From Phormidesmis sp. (GTDB lineage: Bacteria; Cyanobacteriota; Cyanobacteriia; Leptolyngbyales; Leptolyngbyaceae): a stretch of DNA of 64,000 nt. The position numbers and the translations under genes were made by a program. The notes under the pieces were generated by a model. The model was not told the origin of the DNA. It ran no database searches and saw only the letters and a program-made list of their open reading frames with translations. Below are positions 9,283 through 53,327 of this stretch, piece after piece; the stretch's first letter is position 1, and each line of letters begins with the position of its first letter. The stretch is from positions 2,336,001-2,400,000 of the forward strand of contig CBDFJR010000005.1 in the NCBI GenBank assembly GCA_965248535.1. The letters run 5' to 3'.

Positions 9283-9283
9283 T

Positions 9284-12070: not shown

Positions 12071-12124
12071 AAGCCAATGAGCTAGTTTATGGAACTGGAA
12101 ACACTAGAGAGAAACGGTCTGAAG

Positions 12125-14338: not shown

Positions 14339-14340
14339 GG

Positions 14341-16364: not shown

Positions 16365-16522
16365 CCTTGCTAACTCTGTAGAGCTGTTGGCATTGTGATT
16401 CATTGGCTAAAGTGCATCAGTCGTTCAAAGTTTCACCTAATACACCTTGTCAGAGACTAAGCATTTAAAACTATGACTACTTAAACCTTTATAAGCCACA
16501 CATGGTACTGGTAAAGAAAGCA

Positions 16523-17035: not shown

Positions 17036-17063
17036 ACCTTTGAGCAATCAAATTGGAGGAACA

Positions 17064-18057: not shown

Positions 18058-18234
18058 ATGCAAGAAATTGAAAGGTTTTTCACCAATTTGTTCAGTGGAA
18101 TCTTTAATCGCTTCAAGTACGATGCGATAGAGGTTGCTGAGAGAAAAGCGCGAGAAGCCATTGATTCAAAGGTGAATCAGCAGCATCAATCTAAACCAGA
18201 AGAGCAAGAGGAGCGTGAAAAGGAGCAATGGTAA
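18058..18234 (+). CDS. Small hypothetical protein
   Basis: AAGGTG before ATG; amphipathic N-terminus (ERFFTNLFSGIFNRF) and charged tail; overlaps the 3' end of the convergent DUF1822 gene. Confidence 0.5.
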   Translation: MQEIERFFTNLFSGIFNRFKYDAIEVAERKAREAIDSKVNQQHQSKPEEQEEREKEQW

Positions 18235-30136: not shown

Positions 30137-30901
30137 TTATTTTGGAGCGCAGCAGGGGGTGAGAGTAGGGGGAGCGGTAAGGTTTTGTTGCTGAAGGAGT
30201 TGATTCCAGGCGGCGATCGTAGGGTTAGTTTTAGAGATACGAAGTTGAGTCCCTAGTTCCGACAGGGCATCGTACCAAATTCCAGATTTTGCATAACTCG
30301 TCGCACGGTCTAACGGCGTTTTGGCGATCGCGAGTTCTTGGCGTAATTTGGGAGAAGCCGTGATGCGTTGAAGGGTGCCCCGACGAACCACAGGAGTATC
30401 GATCGCTTCATCGCAAAAGATTGCCAGTTCCCAGCGATAGGTTCCTTGAGTTAGAGGTGGGGCGGTCGTGGGCATCGAAAGGCTGATGATCTGGGAAGTC
30501 GAGGTTGTTTTAGGAATGCGGAGCGTTGTTTTATAAATCAGCTTGCCCTTGGCATCTTGGAGTCGCCATTGGGCAGGAGCTTCGGTGTTAATTTGGGCGG
30601 GAAGGCTAAACCAAACCGTTGGACGATCGCGAACCGTTAAGCCCCACAGCGTGTCTGGACGAATCGCCGGAACCAAGGCTGTAAGGCTCTGGTAGCGTTC
30701 TTCACAGGCACCTCGATGCCCACCGCCCTGCCCACGATCGCTCGGTTCACCCGGATCAGGAGGAGTCGGTGGATCAAAGCGAATTTGCTGCGGAATTTGA
30801 GGGGTTGCTTCGCTAAGGGGAATGTCTCCCCCTAAACTAGCGATCAAGAGCGTGATTGCTGCGATGAATGCTGGAGGGAATACTGTTGTTAAACTAGACA
30901 T
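30137..30901 (-). CDS. DUF928 family secreted protein
   Basis: Signal-like N-terminus; GGGHRGAC, LTALVP, GLT..RPTVWF, YRWELAIFC, YAKSGIWYDAL. Confidence 0.88.
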   Translation of the reverse strand: MSSLTTVFPPAFIAAITLLIASLGGDIPLSEATPQIPQQIRFDPPTPPDPGEPSDRGQGGGHRGACEERYQSLTALVPAIRPDTLWGLTVRDRPTVWFSLPAQINTEAPAQWRLQDAKGKLIYKTTLRIPKTTSTSQIISLSMPTTAPPLTQGTYRWELAIFCDEAIDTPVVRRGTLQRITASPKLRQELAIAKTPLDRATSYAKSGIWYDALSELGTQLRISKTNPTIAAWNQLLQQQNLTAPPTLTPCCAPK

Positions 30902-30944
30902 CTCAGGAGTTTCTCTAATAGGTCAACGATAGTCTTAACAGGAT

Positions 30945-33278
30945 TTAATTGTCTTTTATAATCGTGAAGCGATAAGCAACGATACAAGCCGTTAATCCCA
31001 TAACTCCCAGCGTAGGCACCAGCGGAATCCAGCCGCCGCTAATCAATAGACAGTAGGATACACCCATAACCACACCACTGCTGAACAACAGCGCGATCGT
31101 AAAGCCTCTGGCATGGCGAAACCTCCAAGCAATCAGTCCTCCGACTAGGGAGCCGCTGCCGATCCACAGCACTTCAACCCAAGACGGCCACACCCACAGC
31201 AAGGGGCGGCGATCGAGCACAGCACTCAGCATCTGACTGACCATCTGAGCATGAATCAACACACCCGGCACTCGCTGCGGAAAGCTTTTCCCGTAGGGGG
31301 TTGCAAAAGAATCGCCGCTACTGGGCGCAGTCATGCCAATCAAGACCACTCGATCTCGGATGGCTTCAAGATTCATTTGTCCACTGAGTATCTGACGCAC
31401 GGTGACTTGTTGAGCAATCGTTTGCGGCGGCAGCGATCGATAGTTCAGCAAGACCTGACTTCCCCGTGCATCCAGTTGTTGGTATCCACTCACGCGATCG
31501 CTCAGTCCTAAGAACGTGGTGCTGGCTAATTTGAGATATCGCTCAGGCGTAAATGTGGGCAAAATTGGGCTAGGTTCTGCTGCAAGATAACGAAAGGCAA
31601 GCTGAACACTCAGAGCATAGGGTGTCGTGCAGGTCGCGATTGTCTTAGGGCTAACAAACAACAAGTGACGACGAATCACACTATCTTCGTCTTGCACAAA
31701 ATCACTAAAGCCAATCTTGCTAGCGCGAATGTTAGGCGGTGGCGCAACGCCCGTTAAGTCGCGAGACATCGGATCAGGACGCTTGCAAACGGCAATCAGT
31801 TGATCGCGCTGAGTTAATTGCTCTAATCGTTGTTGAAGCGAGGAATTTTGGGTGGGAAAATCGCGGTAAAGATCCAATCCGATCACACGGGGATGATAGC
31901 GCGACAGAATTTCTAGCAATCGATCGAGTGTTGCATCAGATAATGATCCGGCGTTCTGTTTTTCGATATCTTCTTCATCAATTCGCACAATCAGCAATCG
32001 TGAGTCGGGCGGCTCTGGCGGGCGAAATTGCATCAAGCGATCGAAGGTTTGCAGCTCTAGCGGTTGCATCAAGCCCAGCCCGCGAAGCAGCACGATCGCG
32101 AGGGTGACCACGAGGCTAGACTGCGCGATCGTGAGAGTCTGCGATCGCGTCAGACGAGGAAATCGTGACGGACGAGGGGCAACCCAATCTGACCAGCGCG
32201 ATGGCACCTCAGCCGGATTTTGACAAATGACTGGGAGCCAGGTTGCACACGGAAAATCGCCTTCTAACGATTGCAGTTTTTCGCGCGCTTCTCGAACGGC
32301 AACATAGAGTGATTTATCTTGAGCAAAGCCCGATAAAAAGTGTTTGAGAAAGTCTTGGGCGACCCGATCGGGCACAAGTTCTCGCATCACGATCGTTTGA
32401 GTTAGCTGCAAATCTGCTAGATCGTGGGCAAGTCCTAACCCGTCACAAGAGTTAAAGATTGCCAGTTTCAATCCATGGGCGATCGCGTTGCGCAATCCAT
32501 ATTTCAACTGTTCAACTGTGATGGTGTCAGTCTGATTAATTTGGATGCAGCCTTTTTTGCGACTATCGCTATGACCTGCAAAAAATAGAATGTTCCATTC
32601 CGATTGCCAAAGCTGATCTTGAACCGCTTGTAGAGTTGGTTCAATAAGCCATTTAATTTCAGCGTTGGGTAATTGCTGAAGGAGTTGTCGATCGCGATCG
32701 ATTTCTATTCCGTTAGCGTTACCTAGAATGCTGAGAATCTTTACTGTTTCATGATGGGGTTTGGGTTGAATTTGTATGATCTCTGTCGATCGAGCAAACG
32801 TAGACAGACTGATGGCAATTTCAGCGATCGCATAGTCAGTCAAAAAGTCCCATAGGTTCCACGGTAGCTGTAGAACTTGTAGATTATCTGCCACAATGAT
32901 TAATCGAATCGCGTCTTGAGGAGAAAGTCGAGTTCTCAGCGATCGCTCGATCGATTGGAACGAAGCAACACTCAGCCATTGATTCAGATGACGCTGAAGG
33001 GTTTGACAAAGGGCGTTGAATTCTGCTAGCGAAACGCGGGTGTTATCATCCTCCTCAATATCAAAGTCTGGCAACCGCCGCAGCCCCAAATGAGCATAGA
33101 TCGCCGAGTAGTGCGATCGCCAGCGTTGATGATCTGCCACAAACTCAGGAATTGCAGGCAGACTGCCGCTAAACTGCATCGGGGTGGGATGATCGGGTTC
33201 CCAAAGCTGCGCGAACACGCTAGGGAACCCAGTTTTCCAGTGTCCTTGTCCAAAATTGAGCACAATCACAAATTCCAT
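30945..33278 (-). CDS. CHAT protease domain + TM + CHASE2 sensor + C-terminal TM helices
   Basis: LFFAGHS / AIFNSCDG dyad; [58 protein letters not shown]2 motifs. Confidence 0.9.
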   Translation of the reverse strand: MEFVIVLNFGQGHWKTGFPSVFAQLWEPDHPTPMQFSGSLPAIPEFVADHQRWRSHYSAIYAHLGLRRLPDFDIEEDDNTRVSLAEFNALCQTLQRHLNQWLSVASFQSIERSLRTRLSPQDAIRLIIVADNLQVLQLPWNLWDFLTDYAIAEIAISLSTFARSTEIIQIQPKPHHETVKILSILGNANGIEIDRDRQLLQQLPNAEIKWLIEPTLQAVQDQLWQSEWNILFFAGHSDSRKKGCIQINQTDTITVEQLKYGLRNAIAHGLKLAIFNSCDGLGLAHDLADLQLTQTIVMRELVPDRVAQDFLKHFLSGFAQDKSLYVAVREAREKLQSLEGDFPCATWLPVICQNPAEVPSRWSDWVAPRPSRFPRLTRSQTLTIAQSSLVVTLAIVLLRGLGLMQPLELQTFDRLMQFRPPEPPDSRLLIVRIDEEDIEKQNAGSLSDATLDRLLEILSRYHPRVIGLDLYRDFPTQNSSLQQRLEQLTQRDQLIAVCKRPDPMSRDLTGVAPPPNIRASKIGFSDFVQDEDSVIRRHLLFVSPKTIATCTTPYALSVQLAFRYLAAEPSPILPTFTPERYLKLASTTFLGLSDRVSGYQQLDARGSQVLLNYRSLPPQTIAQQVTVRQILSGQMNLEAIRDRVVLIGMTAPSSGDSFATPYGKSFPQRVPGVLIHAQMVSQMLSAVLDRRPLLWVWPSWVEVLWIGSGSLVGGLIAWRFRHARGFTIALLFSSGVVMGVSYCLLISGGWIPLVPTLGVMGLTACIVAYRFTIIKDN

Positions 33279-33280
33279 GA

Positions 33281-34432
33281 CTACACCACAAAAGGTAGGA
33301 TGAGGGTGTCAGCGGCGATTGCAAGCTCTATGGTAAAGCGAGTCGCGATCGGGCATTTAAACCGTTTTAGTTGAATGAGATTGTCTTGATCGGTCGCTTC
33401 AACTGTTTGGATCATTTCACCCGCAGCCGATCCCGATCGCAGCGTTAGTTGCAGTCCGCTCGGCAGCGTAGACTGTGGATCAGCCGATCGAAGCTGAAGG
33501 CGAATAGTGAGGCGATCGGGGGAATCTGGATCGAGTTGTACGATTAACAGCAGCGATCGTTGATTGAGATCGACTACTTTGACGCGCTGAACAGAGGTTG
33601 GTGCAGTTTCAGCCCCTTGTCTAAAACTATAGGCAAGCGCATTGTTGTAATCAAACAAACTCTCTAGGCTCTGCCAACCCGCGTCAAAACTCTGCTGTAG
33701 CCAACGGCTAAGATTGACCAAAGGAGCCTTCTCTCGGCGTTGAAGATTGACTAAGCGATCGCGCCACTCAGCTTGCTCGACCAATGCGCCCCATTGGGCA
33801 AACGGCAGCACCAAGCGAGGCTCAATCACTAATGGATTCGCCAACTGCTGCAAGAGCGTTTCTGCTTGGGTGGTGGTGATTGGATTGAGCGGCGCAACGG
33901 TTGAGCGAGTCACTTCATTTAGTCCTGCCTGCTGCGCGACCCAAAACACGCTGATATCTCGAATCAGATAGGCAGCATCTAGTGAGTAAGTGCGATCGTC
34001 GGCATTATAGGTTCCCAGGGTTTTAATCTGGGCGTGAGTGGTATATCCCCAGATCCGCAGCGTTGACTCATCAGGATCGATTTGAACTGCAAAATAATAG
34101 TCCCCAATCCAACTCGACAAATCCATCCATTCTTGAGAGACTCGCAGTTCAGACGTGTCGATCGAGCAAGTGGGAATCAGAATTAATCGGCAGTCATCCC
34201 AGACGATCGAGGTTCCCTTGACCAGTTGCCAAGCCGACGTGAGTTGCGAACCTGATAACCCGCTTTGAGCCTGAGGCACATACTCAGCTTGAATCCAGGG
34301 CAACACGGTCTGCAAACAGACTGGATTGAGATAAACACTCCAAGCCTGCCCCTCAAGTTGCCTCCACGCCGCCTCTTGCACAGAGGCAGAAATCTCTAAA
34401 TTCAGATCAGTCAGACACTCTAAAAAAGTCAT
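33281..34432 (-). CDS. DUF1822-family protein
   Basis: AWSVYLN..LPW, RLILIP, ELRVSQEWMDLSSWIGDYYFAVQI, IWGYTTH, VNLSRWLQ..GWQ. Confidence 0.88.
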   Translation of the reverse strand: MTFLECLTDLNLEISASVQEAAWRQLEGQAWSVYLNPVCLQTVLPWIQAEYVPQAQSGLSGSQLTSAWQLVKGTSIVWDDCRLILIPTCSIDTSELRVSQEWMDLSSWIGDYYFAVQIDPDESTLRIWGYTTHAQIKTLGTYNADDRTYSLDAAYLIRDISVFWVAQQAGLNEVTRSTVAPLNPITTTQAETLLQQLANPLVIEPRLVLPFAQWGALVEQAEWRDRLVNLQRREKAPLVNLSRWLQQSFDAGWQSLESLFDYNNALAYSFRQGAETAPTSVQRVKVVDLNQRSLLLIVQLDPDSPDRLTIRLQLRSADPQSTLPSGLQLTLRSGSAAGEMIQTVEATDQDNLIQLKRFKCPIATRFTIELAIAADTLILPFVV

Positions 34433-34434
34433 CG

Positions 34435-35649: not shown

Positions 35650-35659
35650 GACAAAAACC

Positions 35660-36982
35660 TCACCACGGATTTCCTACTAGCGTAAAGGCTGCCCAGTGAT
35701 AAGGGTGAGATATGTTTGTACTGGATGCAGTCGCTTGGCTCGGCAAATCTTTGAGATGCAGTTGATTATGCAGCATTTCAAGCTGGGCGAGCCTGAGGGC
35801 TTCTGCCTTAATCGTCGCGGTTTTGAGATGCCGATAAAACGCCTGCATGAGCAATGGAGTGCTGAGATCACTGACTGACCAGAGAGACGCGATCGCGGCT
35901 TTACTCCCGGCTTGCACCGCTAGACCTGCAAACCCTAGCTCGGCGTTGCGATCGCCCAAGGCCGTTCGACAAGCGCTCAACACTAAAAGCTGCACGGGCG
36001 GCTGCTGCAATCCTAATTCTTGAAACTGATCGAGGCGAAGCTGTTGATTCCAGAACTGAATGTAAGAGCGATCGACGGTTCCAGCAGCAAACTCGGCGTG
36101 AGTCGCAAAATGCACAATGCTATAGGGAAAGCTGGCTCTCTGCTCCCGCAGATTTTTGAGCGTAAAGGCTTGATTGAGCAATTGTCTACCGCTCCAGGGC
36201 GGTTGGGTGATGGCCGCGAGTTCGAGGGGCACACCGGGCAGATCGGTCTGATGGTCAAACGTTGAGGCTCCCATTGCCAACACTTGAGTTTGAGAGGTGT
36301 TGCGGGCCGTGCGATCGAGCAAATTAAATGCGGGAATGATTGCCAGTTGGTAGGTCTCAATTAAGAACCGCTTTCCGTCGTGCAGTGCGGCGAGCGGAAG
36401 ACTTCGCAGCCCGCTTCCTAAGCAAAAAATCAATAGATCGGCGTTCCCTAAGTCTGCGGCAATAGAGCCAACCAGCCATTGATAGAGTTGTTGCCCTGGC
36501 TCAAGATATTCATCGGGCTGTGAGTCGGGACGCAGAATGCCCATGCGAAATGTCTGAATCGTCTCCCGCAATCGCACCGGATTGGCGGCGGGCACTTCTC
36601 GTCGAATCAGTTTTCCAGACTCTAAAACGAGAATCAGATCTAAGCGATCGGGCTGGGGAATGGCGTAGATCAGCGCAGCATGATGCTTTGTCTCTTGATT
36701 GATCTGGGCCAGCGATCGGGCAATCTGATCTGCTGGAACAATCTCGCTCGTGATTTTTCCCTGAAAGTAGTCTTCAAACTGCCGTTTCCAGCGTTGCTCA
36801 ACCTGCTCGATCGTGGTTGCAATCTCCGTGGTTGCAATCTCAGATGATGGCAAAACAGAGGGCGACACAACAGGCAGATCGTAGGAGTCTGACCCCGATT
36901 GAGCCGTTCCACTCTGAGCCAACATTGCTGCAAAAAGGCAAATCGACAGTGCTAGCAATACCCAAAATTGGAGTTTTCGCAT
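35660..36982 (-). CDS. Secreted CHAT-domain protease
   Basis: Signal peptide; LPLAALHDG, VHFATHA, LLVLSACRTALG, ASLWSVSD, HPYHWAAF. Confidence 0.92.
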   Translation of the reverse strand: MRKLQFWVLLALSICLFAAMLAQSGTAQSGSDSYDLPVVSPSVLPSSEIATTEIATTIEQVEQRWKRQFEDYFQGKITSEIVPADQIARSLAQINQETKHHAALIYAIPQPDRLDLILVLESGKLIRREVPAANPVRLRETIQTFRMGILRPDSQPDEYLEPGQQLYQWLVGSIAADLGNADLLIFCLGSGLRSLPLAALHDGKRFLIETYQLAIIPAFNLLDRTARNTSQTQVLAMGASTFDHQTDLPGVPLELAAITQPPWSGRQLLNQAFTLKNLREQRASFPYSIVHFATHAEFAAGTVDRSYIQFWNQQLRLDQFQELGLQQPPVQLLVLSACRTALGDRNAELGFAGLAVQAGSKAAIASLWSVSDLSTPLLMQAFYRHLKTATIKAEALRLAQLEMLHNQLHLKDLPSQATASSTNISHPYHWAAFTLVGNPW

Positions 36983-37239
36983 TGCATTTAGACGGCAAGT
37001 CTAAGAATAGAGCTACGTCATATTCTATCTGAAGGGTTTTCACCGTGGTGAATTCAAACACAATTATTCAGCGATCGCTCTGAAGGAACAAAAATATAGG
37101 ACAGCAAAAACGTCCTAACGCCAATCGCAATCACCTCTCAGACTGAATTTGCTTGATAATCCTAGAAGTATTTGAACAGCATTCCAGATGCGATCGCGAT
37201 TCTAAAATTCAAAACTAAGAACAGTCAACCTGTTAAGGA

Positions 37240-38622
37240 TCAAATGGGTAACGTAATAAAAAATTCTGTTCCCGTTCCGAGTTCAGATACACAATCAATC
37301 ATTCCACCATGTTTTTCTACAATAATTTGGCGACTGATCGGCAATCCTAATCCTGTTCCTTTTCCGACAGGTTTTGTTGTAAAGGACGGTTCAAAAATAT
37401 GGGACTGAATCTCAGGAGGCATTCCCGCTCCGCTATCTTTAATCTGAATCGTAATCTGATCTTTTGAAGCGCTCACTGTAGTAGTGATGAGAATGTTGGT
37501 AGATGCACCAATTTCTTGATAAGAAAGACCGTGAATTGTATCTTCGATCGCGTCAATAGCGTTGGCAATTATGTTCATAAACACCTGATTAAGTTGCCCC
37601 GGATAGCACCTAATCGGCGGCAAATCTCCAAACCGTTTGATGACTTGAATCTCTGGATGACGATCGCAGGCTTTTGTGCGATGTTTGAGCAGCATTAGTG
37701 TGCTCTCAATGCCTTCATGAATTTGAAACTCAGTTTTGGCTGAAATATCCGATCGAGCAAAAGTGCGTAACGACAAACTAATATCTCTCAGACGATTGAT
37801 CCCTTCTTGCATCGACACAAGCAGATTCGGCACATCTTCTATTAAATAGTCTAAATCAATTTCTTGAGTTAAATCGATGAGTTCTGGATCGGGATTTTGT
37901 AGCTTTGCTTGATATAAATTCAATAAATTAAGTAAGTCTCTTGTATAGTCTGTAACGTGCAAAAGATTACCGCTAATAAAATTAATTGGGTTGTTAATTT
38001 CATGACCAATGCCAGAGATTAACTCACCTAATGTAGACATCTTCTCACTTTGAATGAGTTGTAATTGAGTTTGACCTAGCTTTTGCATTGAGTCGGTTAG
38101 AGCAGCGGTGCGTTCGTCAACACGGCGTTCTAGCTCTTGGGCTAACTGTTGTAGTTGAGCCTCTGTCTCTGCCTGTTGAACTATTTTTTGCTGTAGTGAC
38201 TCATTTTTTTGTTCAAGGGCCTGAGCCAGCTTAGAAAGTTTTAAATGCAGCTTAATTCGAGCAATTACTTCTTCTTGTTGAAAAGGTTTAGTGATGTAAT
38301 CAACGGCCCCAAGTTCTAACCCTTTAACCTTATCAACGGCATCAGATAAAGCCGTCATAAAAATAACCGGAATCGCTTGTGTAGAAGCCCTAGCTTGAAG
38401 ATGCTGACAGGTTTCAAACCCATTCATGCCGGGCATCATCACATCTAACAAAATCAGGTCGGGGTGAGCATAGTCTGCTTGTTCGATCGCTGATTCACCA
38501 TCGGCAGCAACGAGCGTCATCCAGCCCTGTCCTCGAATCGCTTCAGCCAGCACTTTCAGGTTAGTCGGGTTGTCATCAACGAGCAGAATGCGGCTTGTGG
38601 TCAACTGAGCATCAGACATCAT
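37240..38622 (-). CDS. Hybrid response regulator-histidine kinase (REC-HisKA-HATPase)
   Basis: [60 protein letters not shown]. Confidence 0.95.
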
Positions 38623-41360
38623 GAGAGTGAGCCTATAGTTGAAAATGACTTCAGAAATTTGCGAATTTTACCTGTCTGATACTCTGCGGTGAGTTTGCTA
38701 AGTTCAGTCGTGAACCCTTTGAACTGATGATTTCTCGCGGTCATGTCTCTTAGAATGCCCTCGATCGTTTGCACATCTCCCATCATGGCCAGATGATAAA
38801 GCTGATCGATAACCGCTTGGTCAGGAAGAATCATTTCGTCAGCGGTAACTGCAACGTCAATGCGTTGAGAATCATAAATCCACTCAAGTTTTAACAGAGT
38901 TTGCAACGTGTCTAACAACGTCTCAGCCTGCAAAGGTTTTGCCAAAAAGATGTCTGCACCTGTCTGCAAGCTACGCTGGTGATCAGCCTCAAAAGCGCTG
39001 GCGCTCACCACCACGATCGACAGGGAATTTGTTTGCGGATTGTCTCGAAGATGATGGATTAGTTCAAAACCGTCCATCACAGGCATCGAGAGATCTAGAA
39101 TCACCGCATCGGGCTGATTTGTTAGGGCAGCAGTGAGTCCTTGTTGACCATCATCAGCTTCAAAAACGTGAAATCCCAGGCTCTGTAGTAGGGTAGCCAG
39201 ACCCGATCGGTGATTGAGATCGTCATCGACAATGAGAATCCGAGGCACAACGTGCTGAATGCCGATAATTTTTTGGCGATCGGGCACCGTTGTCAAGTCG
39301 TCCCAATCGTGCGAGATCGGCATGTTTAGATCAATCGAGAAGACACTTCCTTCTCCCAGTCGGCTCTGAACGGTGATTTGACTAGCCATCTGAGCAACGA
39401 TCTTGTGGCTAATTGCCAGCCCTAATCCCGTTCCCTCCGCTTTGCGTCTCGCGTCTCCCGCTTGCTCAAACGGCAAAAAGATTTTTCCCACCTGTTCAGG
39501 TGAAATGCCGACTCCGGTGTCTTCAACTTGAAATTGCAGTTTACACGTCGATGAGTCAACTTGTTCAACCAGCAGCACCCGAAAGGTAACGCTGCCCTGA
39601 TCCGTGAACTTGATGGCGTTTCCTAATAAGTTGATCAACACCTGCCGCAATCGCTTTTCATCCGTCAGAATGCCAGAGGGCAAGCGATCGCTGAATGCCG
39701 CTTCAAACCCAATCCCTTTCTGTTCAGCGCGAATTCGACAAATCTCAGTCACTCCCTTCAAAAAGACTGGCAAATGAACTGGAATCGGCTGCAACTCTAA
39801 CTTACGCGCCTCAATTTTTGACAGATCTAAAACGTCATTAATCAACATCAGCAAGTGAGAACCGCACTGATGAATGATGCCGATTCCTTCTAAATCTTTG
39901 GGAGCCAGCGTTGGCGATCGCTCTAAAACTTGGGCATAGCCGAGAATGCCGTTGAGCGGAGTGCGAAGTTCATGACTCATGTTCGCTAAAAATTCGCTCT
40001 TTGCCTGATTAGCTGAATCCGCTAATTGCTTGGCTTTTACCAATTCATGAGTCCGTTCTTCGACCTTGACTTCTAGATTTTTAGAGTAGTCGAGTAGCTG
40101 ACTGTTGGCTGCTTCTAATCGGCGATTTGCGTCTTCTAAATGTTGCTGTTTGTGAGCCAGCGTTGTGGCGATGATACTGCCCAAAAACGACACCATAACT
40201 GGAGTCATTGGCACCAGCGCATGGTTCAAAAACAATCCATAGACTCCACTACTCATGCTCACTCCGGCTCCCACCGTTGCCCAGAGAATCTTGCCCCCCG
40301 GAATGCGGCTTTTGCGACCACCCGCTAGCCACCAACTGCCGACCGATCCAATTAACGATCCCAGCACAATCCAACCAGTTTGCTCACCGCCTGAGAAAGC
40401 CCTCAAATTTTGCTGTCCTACCTTAGCTGATTGCACCAGATGATAGGCAATATTGGCGTGAACTACCACACCCGGAGTCGGCTTTTGAGCCGAAACCCAG
40501 GAAGAACTGTAGGGAGTGCTGAAAAAATCATTGGTGCTGGCAGCGATCGAGCCAATCAACACCATGCGATCGTGCATCACCTCCGCCGGAACTCGACCCG
40601 CCAAAACGTCGCGCATTGCCACCGTCCGAAATGCTTTTTCTGAGCCGTGCCAGTTGAGAAGAACTTGATAACCGCCTAAATCAGCCTCAGAATATCCAGC
40701 TTCTTGGGGCTTTAATGGCATGTACACTGATTTTCCTAGTCGAAACGTTTGCTGATGGGGATCAACACTTTCTAGCGTTATGCCGTCGGCTTCGAGATAT
40801 TTGAGGGCAACGCTAGCTGCAAGTCCGGCTTTGAGGGTGCCTTGCTCTTTGGTGTCTTCCGCCGTCAGCAGGGCACGACGAATATGGCGATCGCCGTCCA
40901 ATACTAAATCCGCTATTGCGACCTGATCGAGCTTTTTTAGCTCAGGGGGCGGACTGACGCGATCGCCCGTAATTTTCTCAACTCCAATCAAATTTGGAGT
41001 TGTTTTAAACACGCTCACAAGCTTTTCATGACCCGTTCCTTCGGGTAAGTCTCGATAGAGGTCAAGCCCGATCGCTCTCGGCTTCTGCGCCCGAATTTTT
41101 TCTATCAACTCAGCCAGCGCCCAATCAGGAATCGGCCACTTCTGCACGGATTGAATATCTTGCTCATCAATCGTCACCACCACGATAGAGTCGGCAAAGG
41201 TCTCTGAAGAGCGCAACCGAAACAACTCATCTCGTGCTTTCCACTCTAATAAATTAAAGAGTCCTAACGACTGACCTGCCATCACCGTCAACGCCACACT
41301 GGGAGCCACAATCAAGATGCTGCGGTTGCGATAAAAAAAGGTTTTGAGTGTTCGCCACAT
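38619..41360 (-). CDS. CHASE2-domain hybrid sensor kinase (CHASE2-TM-HisKA-HATPase-REC)
   Basis: [68 protein letters not shown]; alternative start at 41399. Confidence 0.95.
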
Positions 41361-41407
41361 AGAATTGATATCAGCAGATAGGGGCAGGTTAGCGGGCATT
41401 TAAACAG

Positions 41408-41445
41408 GATCGGGTGCGTTGTGAATTGTCTTAACGCACCCGATC
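41408..41445. terminator. 13-bp perfect stem-loop downstream of DUF928
   Basis: gatcgggtgcgtt / aacgcacccgatc. Confidence 0.55.
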
Positions 41446-41497
41446 GCCATCATCCTTTTAGCCTCTGGGGTGTCTCAATCGACTGAGAAAGCTAGGG

Positions 41498-42556
41498 CTA
41501 ATGAGCCGAGATCACCAAGGGTGCTTGAGCGATCTCCTTTAAGCCCACTGACGATAGAAGCTCAGACCAATCTTTAGCGAGGGCGGCACTGTTTGACTGA
41601 GTGGCTCTTAGGGTCGCTAAGGTGGCTACGCAGTCATACCACACGCCGTTGGCACCTAGAGCAGTCGCTTGTTTGAGCACATCGGGCTGTTTGAGCGCAG
41701 AGGCTAGCGCAGCACCCGGCTGAATCCGGCGAACCCAACCATTGACATAGGGCGTGCTGGGGCTGAGTTTTCCATCAACTTTCAGCGCTAAGAACCACTG
41801 ATAGTTTTTTCCTATCTCTAAAGCTAGAGCCTCGGCAGGAAGTTTGACCGCCATGATTCCTGTCTGACCTGACACAGGCACCGTCATTTGAGTGTGGGTG
41901 TTTCCGGCTTCATCTTTGAGACTGAAGACTGCTTCCTTGGCGATCGAGGCGGGGAGATAAACCAAAATCGTCGGATGGGCAGACACTGTAGTGCCATAGA
42001 AGGTTTGGGGCAAAACCGCAATCATTGCCAGGGGAGTGTCTGATTTTGAACCCGCGATCGCGGCTGCATTGAGCGGATAGTTCCCCACTCGCGATGCCCC
42101 CCCTGATCCTTGGCTCGGCGCACCATTGCCCGCTGCTGGAGTGAACACTTGCCCCCGTGATGCCCCCCCTGATCCTTGACTCGGAGCGCCATTGCCCGCT
42201 GCTGGAGTGAACACTTGCCCTCGCGATGCGCCCCCCATTGAGCCGTGGGGCGATCGCTGTCCCGAAGTCGGAGTAAACAGGCTACCCCGTGAGGCTCCAC
42301 CCGTCGATTGAACGGGCACAGCATTTTTAGCAGCAGGTGAAAAGAGCACCATTCCCCGTGATGCCCCCCCTGTCGATTGACTCGGAGCACCGCCCCCCGA
42401 TGGTGGTGTAAAGGTAACCGCTTGGGCATTTCCGACTGAAATGAATGCACTAGTGGCAATCAGGGCAATGCCTAAAGAAAACTGGTTGGTCATCTTCTGG
42501 AGATTGGCAGCGCCGATTGCACTTAACCGATTTGTTAACCCTGGATATTTCATCAT
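41498..42556 (-). CDS. DUF928 family secreted protein with five GGASR(G)-ending repeats
   Basis: Signal-like segment ending AQA; five ~22-aa repeats; GTTVSAHPTILVYLP, YQWFLAL, GWVRR, NGVWYD. Confidence 0.9.
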   Translation of the reverse strand: MMKYPGLTNRLSAIGAANLQKMTNQFSLGIALIATSAFISVGNAQAVTFTPPSGGGAPSQSTGGASRGMVLFSPAAKNAVPVQSTGGASRGSLFTPTSGQRSPHGSMGGASRGQVFTPAAGNGAPSQGSGGASRGQVFTPAAGNGAPSQGSGGASRVGNYPLNAAAIAGSKSDTPLAMIAVLPQTFYGTTVSAHPTILVYLPASIAKEAVFSLKDEAGNTHTQMTVPVSGQTGIMAVKLPAEALALEIGKNYQWFLALKVDGKLSPSTPYVNGWVRRIQPGAALASALKQPDVLKQATALGANGVWYDCVATLATLRATQSNSAALAKDWSELLSSVGLKEIAQAPLVISAH

Positions 42557-42704
42557 GATTTTGCTGAGGAGAAAAGGTCAGGGTCAAATGGTTTCCCAAG
42601 TTTGACCCTCAATTCATCCTAGAGAGGTGAGTCTAGAATTCTCTGAGAAGGTTTGCGTATCTTTTGACTCTGGGAGCCGTAGTATCACTGAAATTTAAGT
42701 AGCT

Positions 42705-45249
42705 CTACTGCCAGTTGCCTACGAGCACAAACCCTGACCAGAAGAATGGCTCCCGGAAGTCTGATTTGCGAATTAATTCGATTTGAGCTTGGCGAAGCGC
42801 CTCTGCTTTGCTGACCCCTGGTTGGCGAAGCTGCTGGTAGAAGTGAGCCATCAACCGAGCCGCCGCTTGATCTTTAACGGGCCAAAGAGTGGCTAGGGTT
42901 GATCGCGCCCCTGATTTAATCGCCAGCCCGGCAAGACCGAGAACCGCCCGATCGTCCCCACTGGCGGTGTCACAGGCGCTCAAGACCAAGAGTTCGATCG
43001 CTTGGCTGCCTTCTCGACTTCGCAGGAGTTCTGAAAGCTCTTTGACGTTGACTCGCCCATCCCAAGTGAGCAGAAAGGTATTCTCAAGCTGGGAGCTAAA
43101 CTGTCCGTGGGTCGCCAGGTGCACGATATTGGCATGGCTGTTTCTGACGCGATCGGACAGGGCTTTGTTCGTAAATTCCTGGTTGAGCAGCTTGGAGGAA
43201 GACACGATTTGAGCAATGTCTTGCACTTCTGACTCGACCGCAGGCAGAGACGCAAAGCCCGATCGAGACTGACTAATGCCGCCTACGATCGCGCTAATGT
43301 TGGCAGAATTCAGCGATCGTGCTCCCATTAACTGCAAGCCCGGTGAGAGCGTGACCGCATAGTTTTCAATCAGATAGTGCTGTCCATCATGCAGGGCCGC
43401 CATCGGAATATTTCGCAAATGCCCATCCAGCACAAATACCAGGGTTTTGGTGTGTTTAAATGCCTGATCTTGTTCTGCGGGACGAATCAGCCAATCATAA
43501 ACCTGCTGAGACAACTGCTGACGCTGTTTAGCATCTGCAACGGGATTGAGGGATACAAAGAGATCATCCAGGGTTTTCTCGACTTCAGCTTGGGGTTTGG
43601 GCGTGACATAGTAGCGCAACGGCTCCCCGGCAGTAGACAGAATGACCGCGAGACGATCGGGCAAAATAATCGGATAAACAACGGTTGCTGTAGGATCAAC
43701 CTGATCAATTTGCTTCACCTTGTCCAAACACGCTTCTCGGAAAAAGTTATCGAGTTCTGCAACTTGTAGGGCTTCGATCAAGCCACGAGCTTGAGTCAGC
43801 GCCGCTTGACTCGGTTGAGCATCAAGTAATAAACTCACCAACTCTCGATAGACTGGCTCAACGCTTTCGCGAAAGGAGAACTGCACATCGGCACTCACTG
43901 CCATCAGATCGCCTCGAATAGCTTGGAGAGCAGCCACTGCCTCAGTGTAGTGCGCGATCGCGTCCGATCGATTACCCTGATCCCGATCGAGCCGACCTAA
44001 CTGCCATGCCGATTGAGCAATCAGGTTGTCAGCCCGAAGTTGACGGGCGATCGTGAGAGATTGTTGGGTAACAATACGGGCTTCTGCTATTTGGTGAGTT
44101 CGAGTATATAATCTGTCCCCATTGTTGAAGAGCATAGGCTTCGGCTTGAGTATCCTGAATGCGCTGAGATGACTGCACCGTGCTGGAAAGCAGTTGAGAC
44201 AAAGCTTTCAGAGGCAAAACCTGAGAGGGATCGTCCAGTCTATTTAGCGTGGAGACAAAGTGAATCGCTCCATAAAGAGACGCATGACTGTCCGAGAGAT
44301 CGGCAAATTGTTGATAGATCTGAGTTGCAAGCGGGGCAGCCAGTTCGATTTTTTCGTGGTCAATCAAGAGCTTCAGACGATCGAGACGGGCTTGCAGTTG
44401 CTCTAGTGGATTAGTAGTCGTAGAGTGTTCTGCCTGCTCAAAATAATTCAAGGCAGCATCTGGGTCACCGAGATCGGCTGTAGTTTTGCCCAGAGCGAGG
44501 AGAATAGAGTTGAGGTCAGATGTGGCATTGAGCTTGCGAGCGATCGCCAATCCCTGCTCTAAAACTTTTTGGCTGTTGCTAGCATCCCCCATCGTTTGCA
44601 AAGCTGCACCAAGGGTTCGTAACCCGCTGACCTTAATGTCAGAATCGGGTTGGCTGGCAAGCTTTTGATTGAGCGCTTCTAATTGCTGTCGAGAACGACG
44701 ATAAAACCCCAGCGTTTGCATCGCCTGAGCCTGGTTGATTTGACTGCCTATACTTCCTGTTGAATCGCCTGCTTGGTCGTAAAGTTTTTGGGCTTGTTGC
44801 CAGGTGCTGAGGGCAGATTCAGCATGGCCCGTGTGGAGGAACAATCCAGCCTGAGTGTTGAGTATCTGTGCCCAGACAATCGCATCAGCACTAGGCTTGA
44901 CAGCTTTAAGAATCTGCAAGCTCTGCTCGATCGAGCGTTTAGCATCTTCCCACTGCGTCAATTCTTGCTGGGCCAATGAGCAATAGCTCAGGCTTAGGGC
45001 TTGATTTAAGCGATCGCCTTGCGTCTGATAGTGCTGTGCGGCAGCTTGCCACGCCATTACCGCCTCTACATAGCGCCCTGAGCGATAGAACGTGCGCCCC
45101 TGATCTAGCGAAGACGGAGCTACGATCGTAGAGGGAGACGCAACAGGGGGCATGGTTGCCACTACAGGGTGAGTAGCAATCGCGACCCACAAACTGAGAA
45201 CACTCAAACTGACCGACAGCCAACGGGGTTGATGCGATCGAGCAATCAT
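42705..45249 (-). CDS. Secreted TPR-CHAT protease, frameshifted at ~44112
   Basis: Signal peptide + TPRs (44029-45249) join TPR-CHAT (42705-44135) if one A is removed (WGQ-LYTRT); VHLATHG / LVLSACDT dyad. Confidence 0.88.
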
Positions 45250-45265
45250 GAAAGATACCTAAATT

Positions 45266-48183
45266 TCAACGGTTAGCAACCGCACACGTTTCGGGGGCGC
45301 TGCCAGGGTTAGTGTTCCCATTTGTGGTTTGAGCTACCAGTTCTATAGTGCCGTTGGGGTTGCGAGTCCAATTGGTAGCTTCGATCAGAGGTTTTTTGGG
45401 GAGAAGGGCATCCTGGGCGATCGCGGGCGGTGTGTTCTGAAACGCTGATAAATCTCGCAGGTCAGACCAAGCCCGATCGCTGCTCACCTGCTCAGTGGGA
45501 TTGGTGGGCAAACCACCGCGTCCGGTCACCACAAAGCTATTGCTGTGGTTGCTCGTACAGCCTTGGGCAATTTGGTTGCTGGAGTCAGTCAAATTCGCAG
45601 GCAGTGTTCCTAAACCAGAATTAGGGTCAATGCCAATATTATTGATTTGCACGTTGCCATTGACACTAAATTCGGAACTAGCCGTAATGTCGTTGGTCAG
45701 GTCAGTTCGAGGAGTGAGCGTGTTGCGAAACGCTAGACCAATGATTCCTTGAGTGGTGATATCAATGTTGCCGCCCCGACCTTTGACCGCGTTGGCAATA
45801 ATGTCGCTGTTTTCTAACCCAGCAATAATTGGGGCAGCGATCGTGATGTTGCCGCCATTGCCATCTCCGCCTGCGGTTGCCACAAGTTGACTGCCCTGCC
45901 GCAGAAGCAGTAAGTCTTGGACTTGCAGATTAATGTTCCCGCCCTGTCCAGCAGCAGTTGACGCTTCGATGCTGCCATTCTCCAGCACCACGGTTTTTGC
46001 CTGAATGTTTAACTGTCCCGCGTTGCCTGTACCCTCGTGCTTGACGTTGATAGTTCCCTGATCGCGGATGGTGAGCCGATTGGTTGAGATGCTGACTGTG
46101 CCCGTATCGCCAGTCGGAAAATCTGGCAGCCCATAGAACTGGCGAGTGGTCTGGCTCAAAATCGTAGCATTGGAGACGATCGAGGAGTTTTGAAACTTCT
46201 TTCCCTCCACCAAAATGTCCTCTGCTTGGATCGTTAAGGTTCCCGCATTGCCTGTTGCCCCCGTGAAAGCATTAATCACTGCCCCATCTCGCACCTGCAA
46301 TTGACGGGTTTTAATCATCACATTGCCCCCATTGCCGCTGCCTAAGGTGGATGTACCCACATCACTGGCCCCCTTAGTGATGGGATTGCTGCCACTCACT
46401 TCAATCTGATCGGCAATGGTCAGCGTTACATTCCCCGCATTTCCCAAGTTGTTAGTCTGGGCGCGATCGCCAAAAGCGCCAACCACAGGCAATGAACTAG
46501 TCCCCAATCCACCACCAGCTTGAATGGACAGCTTGGACGCGGTGACCGACACAGAGCCAGTATTGCCTGCTCCAGCCGTAGCACTGCCGACGTAACTTAC
46601 TTGAGTTGGCTGGTTTGGGCTGAATCCCGCGATCACGATCGCATCCCGTGCAACAACTGTAATACTACCTGCGTTGCCAATACCAGTATCAGGAATGCCT
46701 GCAATCCGAGTCACAAAGGTGATAATTGCTCCACTATCTACCAGGCTTAACTGGTCGGTTGAGACATTCACTGCGCCACCATTGCCAATTCCTAGGGTGT
46801 AGGTCTGAATTCCGCTAGTGGTGAAGCTTAAGGGGCTAAACCCGATCGCCGTAATGTCTGAGGCATTGACTGCAATGTTGCCGCCCTGCCCGGTGGCTCC
46901 AGGCAACACATAGGTGGCAATTTGCCCACTCTCTGTCAGGGTAATTTGTCGTGCTGCCACGTCAACGTCACCGCCTGCACCAGACCCATAGACCGTGCTC
47001 GAAATATGGCTACTGCTGCTGCCACCTGCAAACAGCGGCGAATTCACCAGCACAGTGCCATCAGCCAGAATCGTGTCTGCCCTGACTTGCACTTTCCCGG
47101 CGGCTCCCGATCCCAGGCTAAAGGTTTCTATCCCAGCTCCATCTTGCAGAGAAAGGTTTCCTGTTTGAATGTTCACCGCGCCGCCGTTGCCCATTGCGCC
47201 AGGAGCCACTTGGTTTACAATCCAAGCGCTGGGTGCTTGGGCGTTAGCGGTGACTCCACCTAGAATGAGCGATCGTTGGGCATTGACGGTAATCGCGCCG
47301 CCCTGACCTGCACCCGCAGTAGCCGCAGCAATCTGAGATTGATTCAGGGTAATATCGCGCCCGACGACTTGAATTCCCCCAGCCAAGTTGCCCACCGGGT
47401 CAGGATTCCACAGCGAGGAGCGATTGATCAAATTCACATCCCCCAACACTTGGACTTGAGAGTATCCCAGTTGCCAGCCTGCGGGAGTAGGAGTGAGGCT
47501 GACCAACCCACTCTCGACTGCGCCCACTTCAATCCGCCCGGCTGGCGCTGTGATCACTCCACCTGTAAACCTAACGTTGCCACCCACAAGCGCGATCGTT
47601 TTCCTGGGCTGCTGATGATACCTAGATTGCTGGTGGGCACAATGCCATCATTGCCGTTTCCCTGCACCTGAATGTCCCCTGTTCTAGCGTAAAATTGCAG
47701 CCCAGTAGGAACGCTGATCGTCAACAACGGTGTAGCTGTTGGATTGACCGCACTAAACTCGACTCCATCAGCAAATTTGACACTGTTGGCAGTGGTGCCG
47801 ATGAATGAACCCCCCATATTCAACGCGGCATTGGGCCCAAATAAAATGCCACTGGGGTTGAGTAGAAATAAATTGGCCGTGCCGTTAGTCTGAATTACGC
47901 CATTAATGTTGGAAACCATGCCACCTGTGACGCGGCTGAAGATATTTTGCACATCTGCCGCGTTATTAAAACTGGCAGCGCCACCCGTGGGAACAGAAAA
48001 TTGACTAAAGCTATGGAATAGGTTGTTGCCGACGCGATCGCCATCATCAATCGTAAACCGATTCCCGCTTTGGGTCACACGAGTCGAAAGGGTGCCATCA
48101 GGGGTAACTTGAGCGATCGCACGTCCTGCCAATCCACTTAACCCGACTCCAATTATGATCAACCCTGCGATCGCTTTCATCAC
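45266..48183 (-). CDS. Filamentous haemagglutinin-like TpsA protein, frameshifted at ~47600
   Basis: [35 protein letters not shown] domain; Gly/Asn-rich repeats; [11 protein letters not shown]-terminus. 1-nt deletion (ggaaaacgatc) relative to the paralogue (ggaaagacgatc). Confidence 0.9.
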
Positions 48184-48257
48184 ACTATTCCTGCCAGAAC
48201 TATCGCTAGAGTACCCAAAGGAGCGATCACAGTGACTCAGCGATGAATTTGATGAAT

Positions 48258-51179: not shown

Positions 51180-51500
51180 AGTCCGGCATCACAAATCAGA
51201 GCAGACCTAACGTTCCCTGAACGGCTCAAGGAATCGCTATTGGATCAGCATGGGACATTTTGACGATCGCCGCTTTATTTAGAACAGCAAGCCAAAAATC
51301 GAATTGGACTAAATGTGCTCGCAAAGTTAGCAAAACGGATTGTGTGACCATACTAGCGGCTAAGTCGGCTGTATTCTCCTTCATCTCGCTCGCCATAAAC
51401 TTAGAAGCCTCGTTGACAAAGAGGTTGAACCTCCCACTGCTGTTCAGCGCGGACTTGTTCCATCCCCCCATTGATTCCCCCGTTGATAGCCCCCAATCCT

Positions 51501-53327
51501 ATGAACACTCGCCCCGCTCCCTCTTTGCCGAGGATGGCTCGACAATTATTGAGCACCTCACCCTTGTTTTTACTGAGTTTGCCTGCCATTTTACCGTTTC
51601 CCGCTTGGGCAGGTCTTGCCGACTCGACCTTAGCTCAAACGCCGCAGATCGGGAGACCTCAAATTCTCCCTCAAGTTTTGCCTCGCCCTTTCCAACCCGA
51701 ACCGACGCAACCCCTAACGCCGCGACCTCCAGCAGACGAGCTATTGCCTCAGCCTGCGATTTCTCAGCCTGCGATTTCTCAACCTGCGATTTCTCAACCT
51801 GCGATCGCAGCGCCGGGCCAAACCTCTGACACGATCTCGGTGCAGCGCTTTGAAGTCTTAGGCAGCACTGTTTTTAGCGCGCAAGACTTTGCTGAAATTA
51901 CCAAACGGTTTCTCGATCGCAATTTGACCTTTGCTGAATTGTTGCAGGTGAGGTCTGCGATCGTCGATCTCTATGTGCGTCGGGGCTATGTGACCTCTGC
52001 GGCAGTGCTGCCCCCTCAAAGGCTCACCGATGGCACAGTCAAAATCCAGGTAATTGAAGGATCGCTCGAAAGCATTAACGTTGCGGGCACACGTCGCCTT
52101 AACCCCAACTACATTCGCAGTCGTCTCAATCTCGCCGCCTCAAAACCTTTGAATGTCGAGCGGCTGCTCGAAGGACTTCAGCTTCTGCAACTCGACCCTT
52201 TGGTCAAGACGATTTCTGCCGATTTACAAACCGGAACTCAACCCGGCACCAGCGTGCTGCAAGTGATGGTCACAGAAGCAAACACGTTGAGCATTACGCC
52301 GTCGATCGATAACAGTCGATCGCCCAGTGTTGGCTCGCTTCGGCGACAGATCGAAGTTGCTCAAGCCAATCTACTGGGCATCGGCGACGGGCTGCGAGTC
52401 AGCTATACCAACACCGATGGCAGCAACGGCATAGATACCAGCTACACGGTGCCGATTAATCCCCACAATGGCACGGTGCGTCTTGCCTACAGCAACACTC
52501 ATAGCACGGTGATTGAGAAGCCGTTTGATGTGCTCGATATTCAGGCAAAATCTCGCTACTACGAATTCACCTACCGCCAGCCGATCGTGCAACACCCCGC
52601 GAGTGAACTAGCCGTAGGGTTGACTTTTTCACGCCAAGAAAGCCAAACCGAACTCGGCATTGACCACATTGGCCCCTTTCCTCTTTCTCCCGGAGCCGAT
52701 GATCAAGGGCGCACCCGGATTTCTGCTCTGCGCTTTTTTCAAGAATGGGTCAACCGCACCGATCGCCAAGTGATTGCCGCCCGATCGCAGTTCAGCACTG
52801 GTTTAGGACTTTTTGACGCAACGAGCAACGCCAATGCGCCAGACAGTCATTTTTTCACTTGGCGCGGGCAAGCCCAATGGACTCGACTTTTAGCCCGCGA
52901 CACCTTGTTCTTAATTCGCGGTGAGGTGCAATTAGCCGATCGCTCCTTGGTGCCGTTAGAACAGTTTGGCATCGGCGGACAAGAGACTGTGCGAGGCTAT
53001 CGCCAAGATGCCTTGTTGACTGACAGCGGACTGTTGTTTTCGACCGAGTTTCGGCTGCCAATTTTAAGAACGGCAAGAACGGCTCACGGAACTGGAGTAT
53101 TGCAGCTTACGCCCTTTATTGACATTGGCTCAGGCTGGAATCGAGGTGGCAACAATCCTGACTCCAAAACACTCGTCGGTGCCGGACTCGGACTGCTGTG
53201 GAGACAGGGCGATAACTTTTCGGCACGCCTCGATTTTGGGTTTCCGCTGATCTCGATCGAGGGCAATAAAAGCACGCTTCAAGAAAACGGTATCTACTTC
53301 TCGATTAAATACAGCCCATCCTTTTAA
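51501..53327 (+). CDS. ShlB/FhaC/HecB (TpsB) outer-membrane transporter
   Basis: POTRA motifs (YVRRGYVTS, VKIQVIEG), GGQETVRGY, C-terminal aromatic residue; four QPAI(S/A) 15-bp repeats at ~51750-51808; divergent from the TpsA genes. Confidence 0.93.
   Translation: MNTRPAPSLPRMARQLLSTSPLFLLSLPAILPFPAWAGLADSTLAQTPQIGRPQILPQVLPRPFQPEPTQPLTPRPPADELLPQPAISQPAISQPAISQPAIAAPGQTSDTISVQRFEVLGSTVFSAQDFAEITKRFLDRNLTFAELLQVRSAIVDLYVRRGYVTSAAVLPPQRLTDGTVKIQVIEGSLESINVAGTRRLNPNYIRSRLNLAASKPLNVERLLEGLQLLQLDPLVKTISADLQTGTQPGTSVLQVMVTEANTLSITPSIDNSRSPSVGSLRRQIEVAQANLLGIGDGLRVSYTNTDGSNGIDTSYTVPINPHNGTVRLAYSNTHSTVIEKPFDVLDIQAKSRYYEFTYRQPIVQHPASELAVGLTFSRQESQTELGIDHIGPFPLSPGADDQGRTRISALRFFQEWVNRTDRQVIAARSQFSTGLGLFDATSNANAPDSHFFTWRGQAQWTRLLARDTLFLIRGEVQLADRSLVPLEQFGIGGQETVRGYRQDALLTDSGLLFSTEFRLPILRTARTAHGTGVLQLTPFIDIGSGWNRGGNNPDSKTLVGAGLGLLWRQGDNFSARLDFGFPLISIEGNKSTLQENGIYFSIKYSPSF

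Follow-up and report, generated by a model that had tools for sequence, protein, structure and literature searches.

In type III-E CRISPR systems, the TPR-CHAT protease Csx29 is activated by RNA-guided Cas7-11 and cleaves Csx30, the holder of the extracytoplasmic function (ECF) sigma factor RpoE. ECF sigma factors are classically activated when their anti-sigma factors undergo regulated intramembrane proteolysis, and two-partner secretion systems of the FhaC/FhaB type come with a maturation protease. Here, a locus of the cyanobacterium Phormidesmis sp. (GCA_965248535.1, contig CBDFJR010000005.1) was analyzed. It covers positions 30137-53327 of the window, the whole stretch of 64,000 nucleotides (nt) that was studied, and encodes secretion proteins, CHAT proteases, CHASE2 receptors, DUF928 proteins, and a sigma factor with a DUF1822 protein. 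Like FhaC/FhaB-type systems, the locus has a TpsB with POTRA domain and ShlB barrel, TpsA proteins with a two-partner secretion (TPS) domain and beta-helix (Pfam for TpsB and the TPS domain), and a gene for an exported protease nearby. In contrast, the protease here has a caspase fold, and a CHASE2 receptor and DUF928 go with the cluster. With type III-E CRISPR the locus shares the logic, proposed here, of a CHAT protease cleaving the holder of an ECF sigma factor; the activator there is Cas7-11 and not a membrane receptor.

The closest described systems are the EACC2-caspase systems of Kaur, Iyer, Burroughs and Aravind (eLife 2021, PMC8195603), a computational account of caspase-CHASE2 genes that occur with ECF sigma and DUF1822 genes. 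Stimulus-induced activation of the peptidase was proposed there to feed the sigma factor. The receptor at our locus appears to be built as described for these systems, with a putative constant N-terminus, a caspase-fold domain and a variable C-terminus in which transmembrane (TM) segments and CHASE2 are possible; the variable sensor is here a CHASE2 domain (3e-67) at residues 391-715. ECF sigma and DUF1822 genes are adjacent in both cases, here with 2-nt gaps, and the proposed logic, from stimulus over peptidase to sigma factor, is the same. The sigma/DUF1822/caspase module is already described computationally and is not new as a concept; an earlier note on this DNA, which knew of no mechanistic description of the circuit, is superseded on this point by that paper. 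Kaur et al. call DUF1822 a TPR protein, whereas our model shows an alpha/beta domain connected by a helical linker to a beta-sandwich. Moreover, DUF928, exported CHAT and TPS genes, which are recurrent companions here, go unmentioned in the section 9 text of their paper; its Figure 3H and supplements may show more. Literature searches on DUF928 and DUF1822 found no experimental study of the module.

A tested relative in logic is known from Anabaena PCC 7120. HetF, which combines a cytoplasmic CHAT domain, a TM segment and a periplasmic TPR part, cleaves PatU3 after Arg117 (PMC9457339). HetZ is described as an ECF sigma factor with three insertions, and PatU3 inhibits it via i1, i3 and sigma-4 (PMC13342950). 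The earlier note had invoked HetF as a precedent, and cleavage of this sigma-HetZ inhibitor is indeed published in these two papers. In the literature found, PatU3 is the only established substrate of cyanobacterial caspase-like proteases. As in HetF, the CHAT domain of the receptor at our locus is cytoplasmic and sits on a membrane protein with a periplasmic domain, and the Arg-specific cut of a sigma inhibitor is what we propose for DUF1822. The sigma factor resembles HetZ as an ECF-type protein of about 400 amino acids (aa) with insertions, and DUF1822 contacts insert and sigma-4 in our model, as PatU3 does in HetZ. The systems differ in the periplasmic part, which is TPR in HetF and CHASE2 here, and hetF is not described in these sources as adjacent to hetZ. 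We regard the likeness as functional and not as a shown homology.

Layout of the locus and conservation of its gene sets

We hold with moderate confidence that the locus consists of two neighbouring cassettes for envelope signalling, which follow a single design that recurs in cyanobacteria but have different outputs. Cassette 1 (37240-53327) would comprise TpsB, the two TpsA, TPR-CHAT, DUF928a, the CHASE2 hybrid kinase and the response-regulator (RR)-kinase, with a phosphorelay as output. Cassette 2 (30137-36982) would comprise CHAT2, the sigma factor, DUF1822, the CHAT-TM-CHASE2 receptor and DUF928b, with the sigma factor as output. An exported CHAT, a periplasmic DUF928 and a CHASE2 membrane receptor would be the input parts common to both. 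The locus would thereby provide two natural versions of the same input machinery whose outputs, phosphorelay versus sigma factor, are easily read.

The gene families named in the earlier note were each found at their places by Pfam, and NCBIfam matches the sigma family as well. TpsB lies on the + strand, and the eleven other genes are co-oriented on the - strand, as had been claimed; these eleven genes correspond, however, to 13 open reading frames (ORFs), TpsA2 and TPR-CHAT each being split. The flanks are unrelated, with an oxoprolinase gene on the left and LmeA-like and DUF2231 genes on the right. The tight packing that had been noted before is present inside the sigma module from CHAT2 to DUF928b, where the gaps are 10, 2, 2 and 43 nt, but it is broken by 257 nt between the RR-kinase gene and CHAT2. 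The start of the RR-kinase gene overlaps the upstream CHASE2 kinase gene by 4 nt. Consensus matches in the control region ahead of CHAT2 point to a sigma-70-like promoter at 37228-37199 and a terminator-like hairpin at 37117-37097. Just before CHAT2, an ECF-like AAACCC-N14-GACGT element (37039-37015) was likewise found by consensus. Because the 257-nt gap holds a terminator-like hairpin and promoter-like sites precede CHAT2, cassette 2 is probably its own operon. An ACCC-containing element recurs, by eye, upstream of sigma operons in related loci. No convincing copy of AAACCC-N-GACGT was seen upstream of other cluster genes, with a loose resemblance before DUF928a only.

Conservation was followed in 30 DUF1822-anchored loci from cyanobacterial genomes. 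In 27/30 of them, DUF1822 is immediately preceded by the sigma gene. A gene for a caspase-fold protease is likewise adjacent in 27/30 loci: nine encode a CHAT-TM-CHASE2 protein, 17 a divergent Peptidase_C14 protein and one a C14-like protein with nSTAND1 and WD40. The 17 divergently transcribed proteins have about 670-870 aa, and all five that were scanned against Pfam match Peptidase_C14. Three loci are without an adjacent protease (L011, L028 and L021, the last on a 3-kb contig). Both the pairing of sigma with DUF1822 and their co-occurrence with a caspase-fold protease are in this way borne out. In the nine loci with a CHAT-CHASE2 receptor, DUF928 follows the receptor in 7/9, a separate CHAT gene is found in 6/9, TpsA within 10 kb in 4/9 and a CHASE2 kinase or RR-kinase in 0/9. 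The closest relatives keep the five-gene sigma module only (L001, L002, L098). Gene order within the module varies: in the same-family genome G294, DUF928, the receptor and CHAT2 are divergent from sigma and DUF1822, with the CHAT2 orthologue (546 bits) adjoining the receptor gene, and in L001 the CHAT gene sits between DUF1822 and the receptor. Since the five genes stay together despite shuffled order, functional coupling is indicated for exactly these five and not for the whole 23 kb. Among DUF928-anchored loci of 30 other genomes, CHASE2-DUF928 followed by TPS, CHAT or TpsB genes was met repeatedly (e.g. L097, L061, L086, L052, L056, L077).

These data also bear on the integrated 23-kb circuit of the earlier note. 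In that reading all eleven genes would act together, with exported CHATs processing TpsA and DUF928 into one product, sensed by both CHASE2 receptors and leading to two outputs. The genes are co-oriented and adjacent, TpsA occurs near sigma modules in the four loci mentioned and additionally in L015 and L030, this genome has a third system in which a TPS-CHAT fusion is convergent with DUF1822 and CHAT-CHASE2 genes, and conserved Gly-Arg-Gly motifs are present in both TpsA C-termini and DUF928 N-termini. However, the kinase pair is found at none of the nine receptor loci, the nearest relatives carry the five-gene module alone, and the terminator-like site and the 257-nt gap lie between the halves. 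The paired parts (DUF928, CHAT, CHASE2 receptor) are only about 29-33% identical between the cassettes. Each CHASE2 receptor is accompanied by a DUF928 and an exported CHAT of its own, which is easier to reconcile with two parallel cassettes than with a single product sensed by both. A single circuit is thus unlikely, and neither the integrated 23 kb nor the product shared by two receptors was retained from the earlier note. The features of the two proposed cassettes are collected in the table.

Table. Features of the locus at window positions 30137-53327, with the matches on which each assignment is based
Feature	Position	Strand	Evidence
TpsB, outer-membrane transporter	51471..53327	+	ShlB 1.3e-32, POTRA_2 7e-22, Omp85 9e-15 (Pfam)
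TpsA1 exoprotein, 973 aa	48258..51179	-	TPS 5e-63 (Pfam), TIGR01901 (NCBIfam)
TpsA2 exoprotein	45266..48183	-	ORFs 47554-48183 (TPS 3e-56) and 45266-47587
TPR-CHAT protease, predicted exported	42705..45249	-	TPR_12 9e-16 on 44029-45249; CHAT 3.5e-64 on 42705-44135
DUF928a, periplasmic protein	41498..42556	-	DUF928 3e-54 (Pfam)
CHASE2 hybrid histidine kinase	38619..41399	-	CHASE2 1e-58, HisKA 5e-21, HATPase_c 1e-25, Response_reg 3e-25
RR-kinase (response-regulator/kinase fusion)	37240..38622	-	Response_reg 9e-31, HATPase_c 5e-24
Intergenic control region	37015..37228	-	consensus matches only
CHAT2, small predicted exported CHAT protease	35660..36982	-	CHAT 2.9e-63 (Pfam)
ECF-type sigma, 404 aa	34435..35649	-	Sigma70_r4 1.9e-5 (Pfam); TIGR02937 99.4 bits
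DUF1822, predicted sigma partner (candidate anti-sigma or adaptor)	33281..34432	-	DUF1822 4.7e-82, 276 bits
CHAT-TM-CHASE2 receptor	30945..33278	-	CHAT 8.7e-13, CHASE2 3e-67 (Pfam)
DUF928b, periplasmic Ig-like protein	30137..30901	-	DUF928 1.1e-41 (Pfam)

Further copies exist in this genome. Contig 2 holds CHASE2, DUF928, TPR-CHAT and TpsA genes. On contig 5 (L045, G000:C5:756000-775000, positions 5843-14953) CHAT is the C-terminal part of a 1516-aa TpsA, and this TPS-CHAT fusion is convergent with a DUF1822/CHAT-CHASE2 pair. The ORFs of 247 and 237 aa that flank this CHAT-CHASE2 system gave no match to the DUF928 or sigma profiles.

Sigma factor, DUF1822 and the CHASE2 receptor

The protein that the earlier note called sigma-like is, judged from its profile matches, a real ECF-type sigma factor. 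On TIGR02937 (sigma70-ECF, NCBIfam; cut-off 42.9 bits) it scores 99.4 bits (E 1.6e-28), with residues 75-355 aligned to positions 4-165 of the 165-position model, which implies long insertions and an N-terminal extension of 74 residues. The insertion lies between sigma-2 and sigma-4. A profile of the protein matched sigma-4 (8jzt, 1.7e-5) and sigma-2 (8b3z, 6.6e-3) in the PDB, Pfam recognized region 4 only, and the 818 homologues belong to the sigma-70 family by their source names. In the comparison with type III-E CRISPR, membership in NF041236 was considered and rejected (29.3 bits, cut-off 100).

Binding of the sigma factor to DUF1822 is strongly predicted by complex modelling. The interaction prediction score from aligned errors (ipSAE) was 0.79 in 3/3 runs and 0.00 for the best of three controls, so that the interaction supposed in the earlier note is clearly separated from controls in the model. 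For orientation, the ipSAE mark is reached by 116/157 solved complexes and 2/215 mismatched pairs; custom alignments were used here and this calibration holds roughly. At least 88% of contacts are common to the runs, and the predicted local distance difference test (pLDDT) of the partners is at least 81. In the modelled interface only residues 4-204 of DUF1822 take part, touching the sigma factor at 88-218 (sigma-2 and insert) and 319-376 (sigma-4). The model of DUF1822 itself (pLDDT 86.8) does not show a TPR fold: an alpha/beta domain spans residues 10-170, the linker at 187-271 is helical, and residues 281-382 form a beta-sandwich. This C-terminal beta-sandwich is free in the complex model. 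Fold searches gave middling matches of the N-domain to PD-(D/E)xK-type nucleases (Z 6.1-7.4, within the range that the tool calls common) and common-range matches of the C-domain to generic Ig-like sandwiches. In 26 sequences P205-R206 is invariant and R271 nearly invariant, and R271 lies just ahead of the only disordered internal loop of the model. We infer R206 and R271 as candidate Arg-directed cut sites.

Natural variants of DUF1822 agree with a protein of two parts. One form has the N-half only, one is split at profile position 181, and a form of 323 aa, from which most of the N-half is missing, is found in sigma-less TPR-CHAT/receptor/DUF928 cassettes (4/4 Nostocaceae loci fetched).

The N-half form was observed in the window itself. 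At 18186-20359 (-) there is a second sigma/DUF1822-type pair with a 4-nt overlap and no adjacent protease gene. Its 478-aa protein has a faint sigma-4 match (Pfam 0.0028), aligns to the sigma family by hhalign (4.8e-5) and retrieved unnamed or sigma-70 clusters only in a Protein Atlas search. The 246-aa protein matches the N-half of DUF1822 only (profile positions 1-196 of 370) and is not universal in Nostocaceae. The split form was observed on contig 2 (L044, G000:C2:1296000-1310000, 5786-8145, -), where a paralogous sigma factor of 394 aa, 44% identical, is followed by DUF1822 as overlapping ORFs of 190 and 197 aa. They are divided at the domain boundary, either naturally or by a frameshift, and there is a serine recombinase gene in the vicinity.

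The receptor consists of a putative N-terminal constant region, CHAT (110-355), TM, CHASE2 (391-715) and C-terminal TM segments, the TM segments being judged by eye from the translation. Residues 4-109 are conserved in homologues, whose alignments begin at residue 4. A variant with an adenylate/guanylate cyclase domain between CHAT and CHASE2 was seen in L003 (11273-14167, +). The three CHAT translations contain the motifs ATHG...SACD, ATHA...SACR and AGHS...NSCD. We take motifs of this type to be the catalytic ones of the CHAT/caspase fold, and with this assumption the claim that all three domains keep the His/Cys dyad stands. TPR-CHAT has a hydrophobic, signal-like N-terminal stretch and CHAT2 a signal-like N-terminus (both judged by eye from the translations).

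For cassette 2 we propose the following mechanism. At the receptor, DUF1822 would keep the sigma factor inactive. The CHASE2 receptor would be switched by an event in the periplasm in which DUF928 takes part, and this event may be the cutting of a conserved Arg-containing N-terminal motif of DUF928 by the exported CHAT. The cytoplasmic CHAT domain of the receptor would then cut DUF1822, either at the domain junction, behind the invariant R206, or behind R271, which precedes the disordered loop, and the freed sigma factor would transcribe its regulon. The concrete predictions are that DUF1822 residues 4-204 bind sigma, that R206 and R271 are candidate cuts and that the Arg-containing DUF928 motif is amplified; the value of the locus is that of a well-defined experimental target. 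It bears on the question of whether cyanobacteria use protease-gated release of sigma factors as a general signalling mode, beyond the heterocyst development from which it is known.

A different role for DUF1822, as a tether or co-activator, is quite unlikely in our judgment. Here the exported CHAT would cut the periplasmic CHASE2 domain in a site-1-like manner, freeing the cytoplasmic half of the receptor with DUF1822 and sigma. DUF1822 also stands beside the receptor without sigma and its constant partner may be the receptor, which would suit a tether, as would the free beta-sandwich in the complex model, the exported CHAT in 6/9 receptor loci and the classical ECF route of regulated intramembrane proteolysis. 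However, the modelled DUF1822 covers sigma-4 and the sigma-2 region in an inhibitor-like fashion, and the catalytic dyad of the receptor would be left without explanation if the receptor were a mere substrate. PatU3, moreover, is described as an inhibitor (PMC13342950).

The protease genes could also belong to conflict or programmed-cell-death systems, in which caspase-like proteases are effectors that harm the cell or a competitor and the sigma factor is an accompanying response. Kaur et al. placed EACC2-caspase genes among apoptosis and immunity systems (PMC8195603), a DUF1822/sigma pair also adjoins a STAND-WD40 protein (L009), the window has a further CHAT-STAND-TPR gene (4725-8588), and the families are multi-copy and patchy across genomes. 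Against this, an extracytoplasmic sensor on the receptor and a dedicated sigma partner are typical of signalling and not of killing, no toxin-like effector domain was found in the locus by Pfam, and HetF is reported as a specific regulatory protease (PMC9457339). A conflict function thus appears very doubtful, and we keep to two signalling cassettes.

DUF928 and the points against two cassettes

DUF928b was modelled (pLDDT 84.9) as an Ig-like beta-sandwich (79-179) with four C-terminal helices. Foldseek matched the sandwich to RhoGDI, carbohydrate-binding (CBM), Wzt and MG-type sandwiches with E about 1e-4. Ahead of the sandwich lies a conserved motif, F-x-P-P-x-P-P-D-x-G-x-P-x-x-R-G-Q-G-G-G-x-R-G, largely of low model confidence. 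It is single and N-terminal in DUF928b. In DUF928a the domain is preceded by five 22-aa units in tandem, which end in GGASRG/V, and 119/120 of its best 120 homologues contain 3-7 copies with a modal spacing of 22 aa; the lengths of these homologues step by 22 because of the 3-7 copies at 22-residue spacing. The exported protease may dock or cut at this motif. DUF928 is present in 52/61 sampled genomes of the class, and CHASE2 and DUF928 are paired at both receptors of the locus and at 3/3 of the DUF928 genes that this genome has.

Many bacteria have CHASE2 as a sensor domain, the ligand of which was called unknown as of 2023 (PMC10581220). A bolder extension of our proposal is that CHASE2 senses a ligand set free by a protease, namely the N-terminal, Arg-terminated motif of DUF928, and that HetF-PatU3-sigma-HetZ is a specialized branch of the same design. 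The exported CHAT would then cut after each motif Arg and free peptides or unmask the Ig-like domain. If true, this would give the first ligand class for CHASE2 and define a caspase-driven periplasmic peptide-signalling route; we consider it improbable.

Several observations weigh against two cassettes with the proposed mechanism. The complex score is the model's own confidence. A cut at R206 or R271 would leave the sigma-binding half whole, and release would then need a further step, e.g. degradation. DUF1822 also occurs in cassettes without sigma, from which it follows that anti-sigma cannot be its only role. No promoter motif common to the sigma operon and the TPS or kinase genes was found. 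A CHASE2 gene lies within about 6 kb in only 17/30 DUF928-anchored loci (30 genomes), so DUF928 is not an obligate CHASE2 partner; the CHASE2 profile was made from 17 sequences and may miss divergent domains. Two of the 13 DUF928 loci without CHASE2 are on contigs below 3.5 kb, and the scanned neighbours in the other eleven are housekeeping or unrelated genes, or have no Pfam match. Conversely, one CHASE2-PAS-GGDEF gene of this genome is without a DUF928 neighbour. Two genes are frameshifted in the assembly, and only the shift in TPR-CHAT is contradicted by other data.

Finally, homology to HetZ/PatU3 was not demonstrable. Searches of PDB sequences with phmmer and profiles returned no HetZ chain for the sigma factor, whose matches were confined to generic sigma-4 or HTH pieces; DUF1822 had no match. 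When five Nostocaceae genomes were searched with a profile, only members of the present family itself and short sigma-4 matches came up. The back-translated PatU3 cleavage motif was found in 0/121 Nostocaceae genomes; a 6-residue PatU3 motif had matches in 4/5 genomes, with the in-frame ones found by an ORF scan lying only in oxoprolinase-like ORFs and none PatU-like. The 323-aa DUF1822 proteins were considered as PatU and rejected from their location in TPR-CHAT/receptor/DUF928 cassettes.

Secretion genes, frameshifts and further genes of the window

TpsB is divergent from the other genes of the locus, and its start codon is uncertain. A TGRGGLP-containing C-terminal motif is common to TpsA1, TpsA2 and the TpsA proteins of L015, L024 and L029. 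By alignment to TpsA1, the TpsA2 gene is split by the loss of 1 nt from an A-run (about 47599-47602). The contigs of two public sequencing runs (X1 and X2, which hold 0.92 and 0.87 of the sampled words) had no indel reported at that place, for which their coverage was not displayed. The TPR-CHAT gene is split into 44029-45249 and 42705-44135 by a shift near 44110-44113. All X1 and X2 contigs over this site are without one base at 44110 or 44113, with supporting depths of 8.11+6 of 14.1 in X1 and 26.4+26.8 of 53.2 in X2. Since every covering contig lacks one base there, the TPR-CHAT frameshift is an assembly error or private to this strain, and the gene itself is probably whole.

TpsA1 and TpsA2 (45266-51179, -) share a homogenized tract at alignment columns of about 151-450 (99-100% identity, with a 297-nt exact run) and a second one at about 2401-2700 (95-98%), the remainder being 58-80% identical. 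The pattern suggests that gene conversion has acted on the secretion domain and on the C-terminal region with the TGRGGLP motif.

Outside the locus, the window contains a fourth CHAT gene at 4725-8588 (+), which encodes a cytoplasmic protein of 1287 aa with CHAT, AAA_16 (STAND-like) and TPR domains and is of the conflict-system type. Genes at 9753-14781 (-) match Baseplate_J-like, Tail_P2_I and DUF4159 and may be a phage-tail-like or contractile-injection set. At 14955-18029 (+) a Ser/Thr kinase-GUN4-like fusion is followed by a small GUN4-like protein and a COP23-domain protein.

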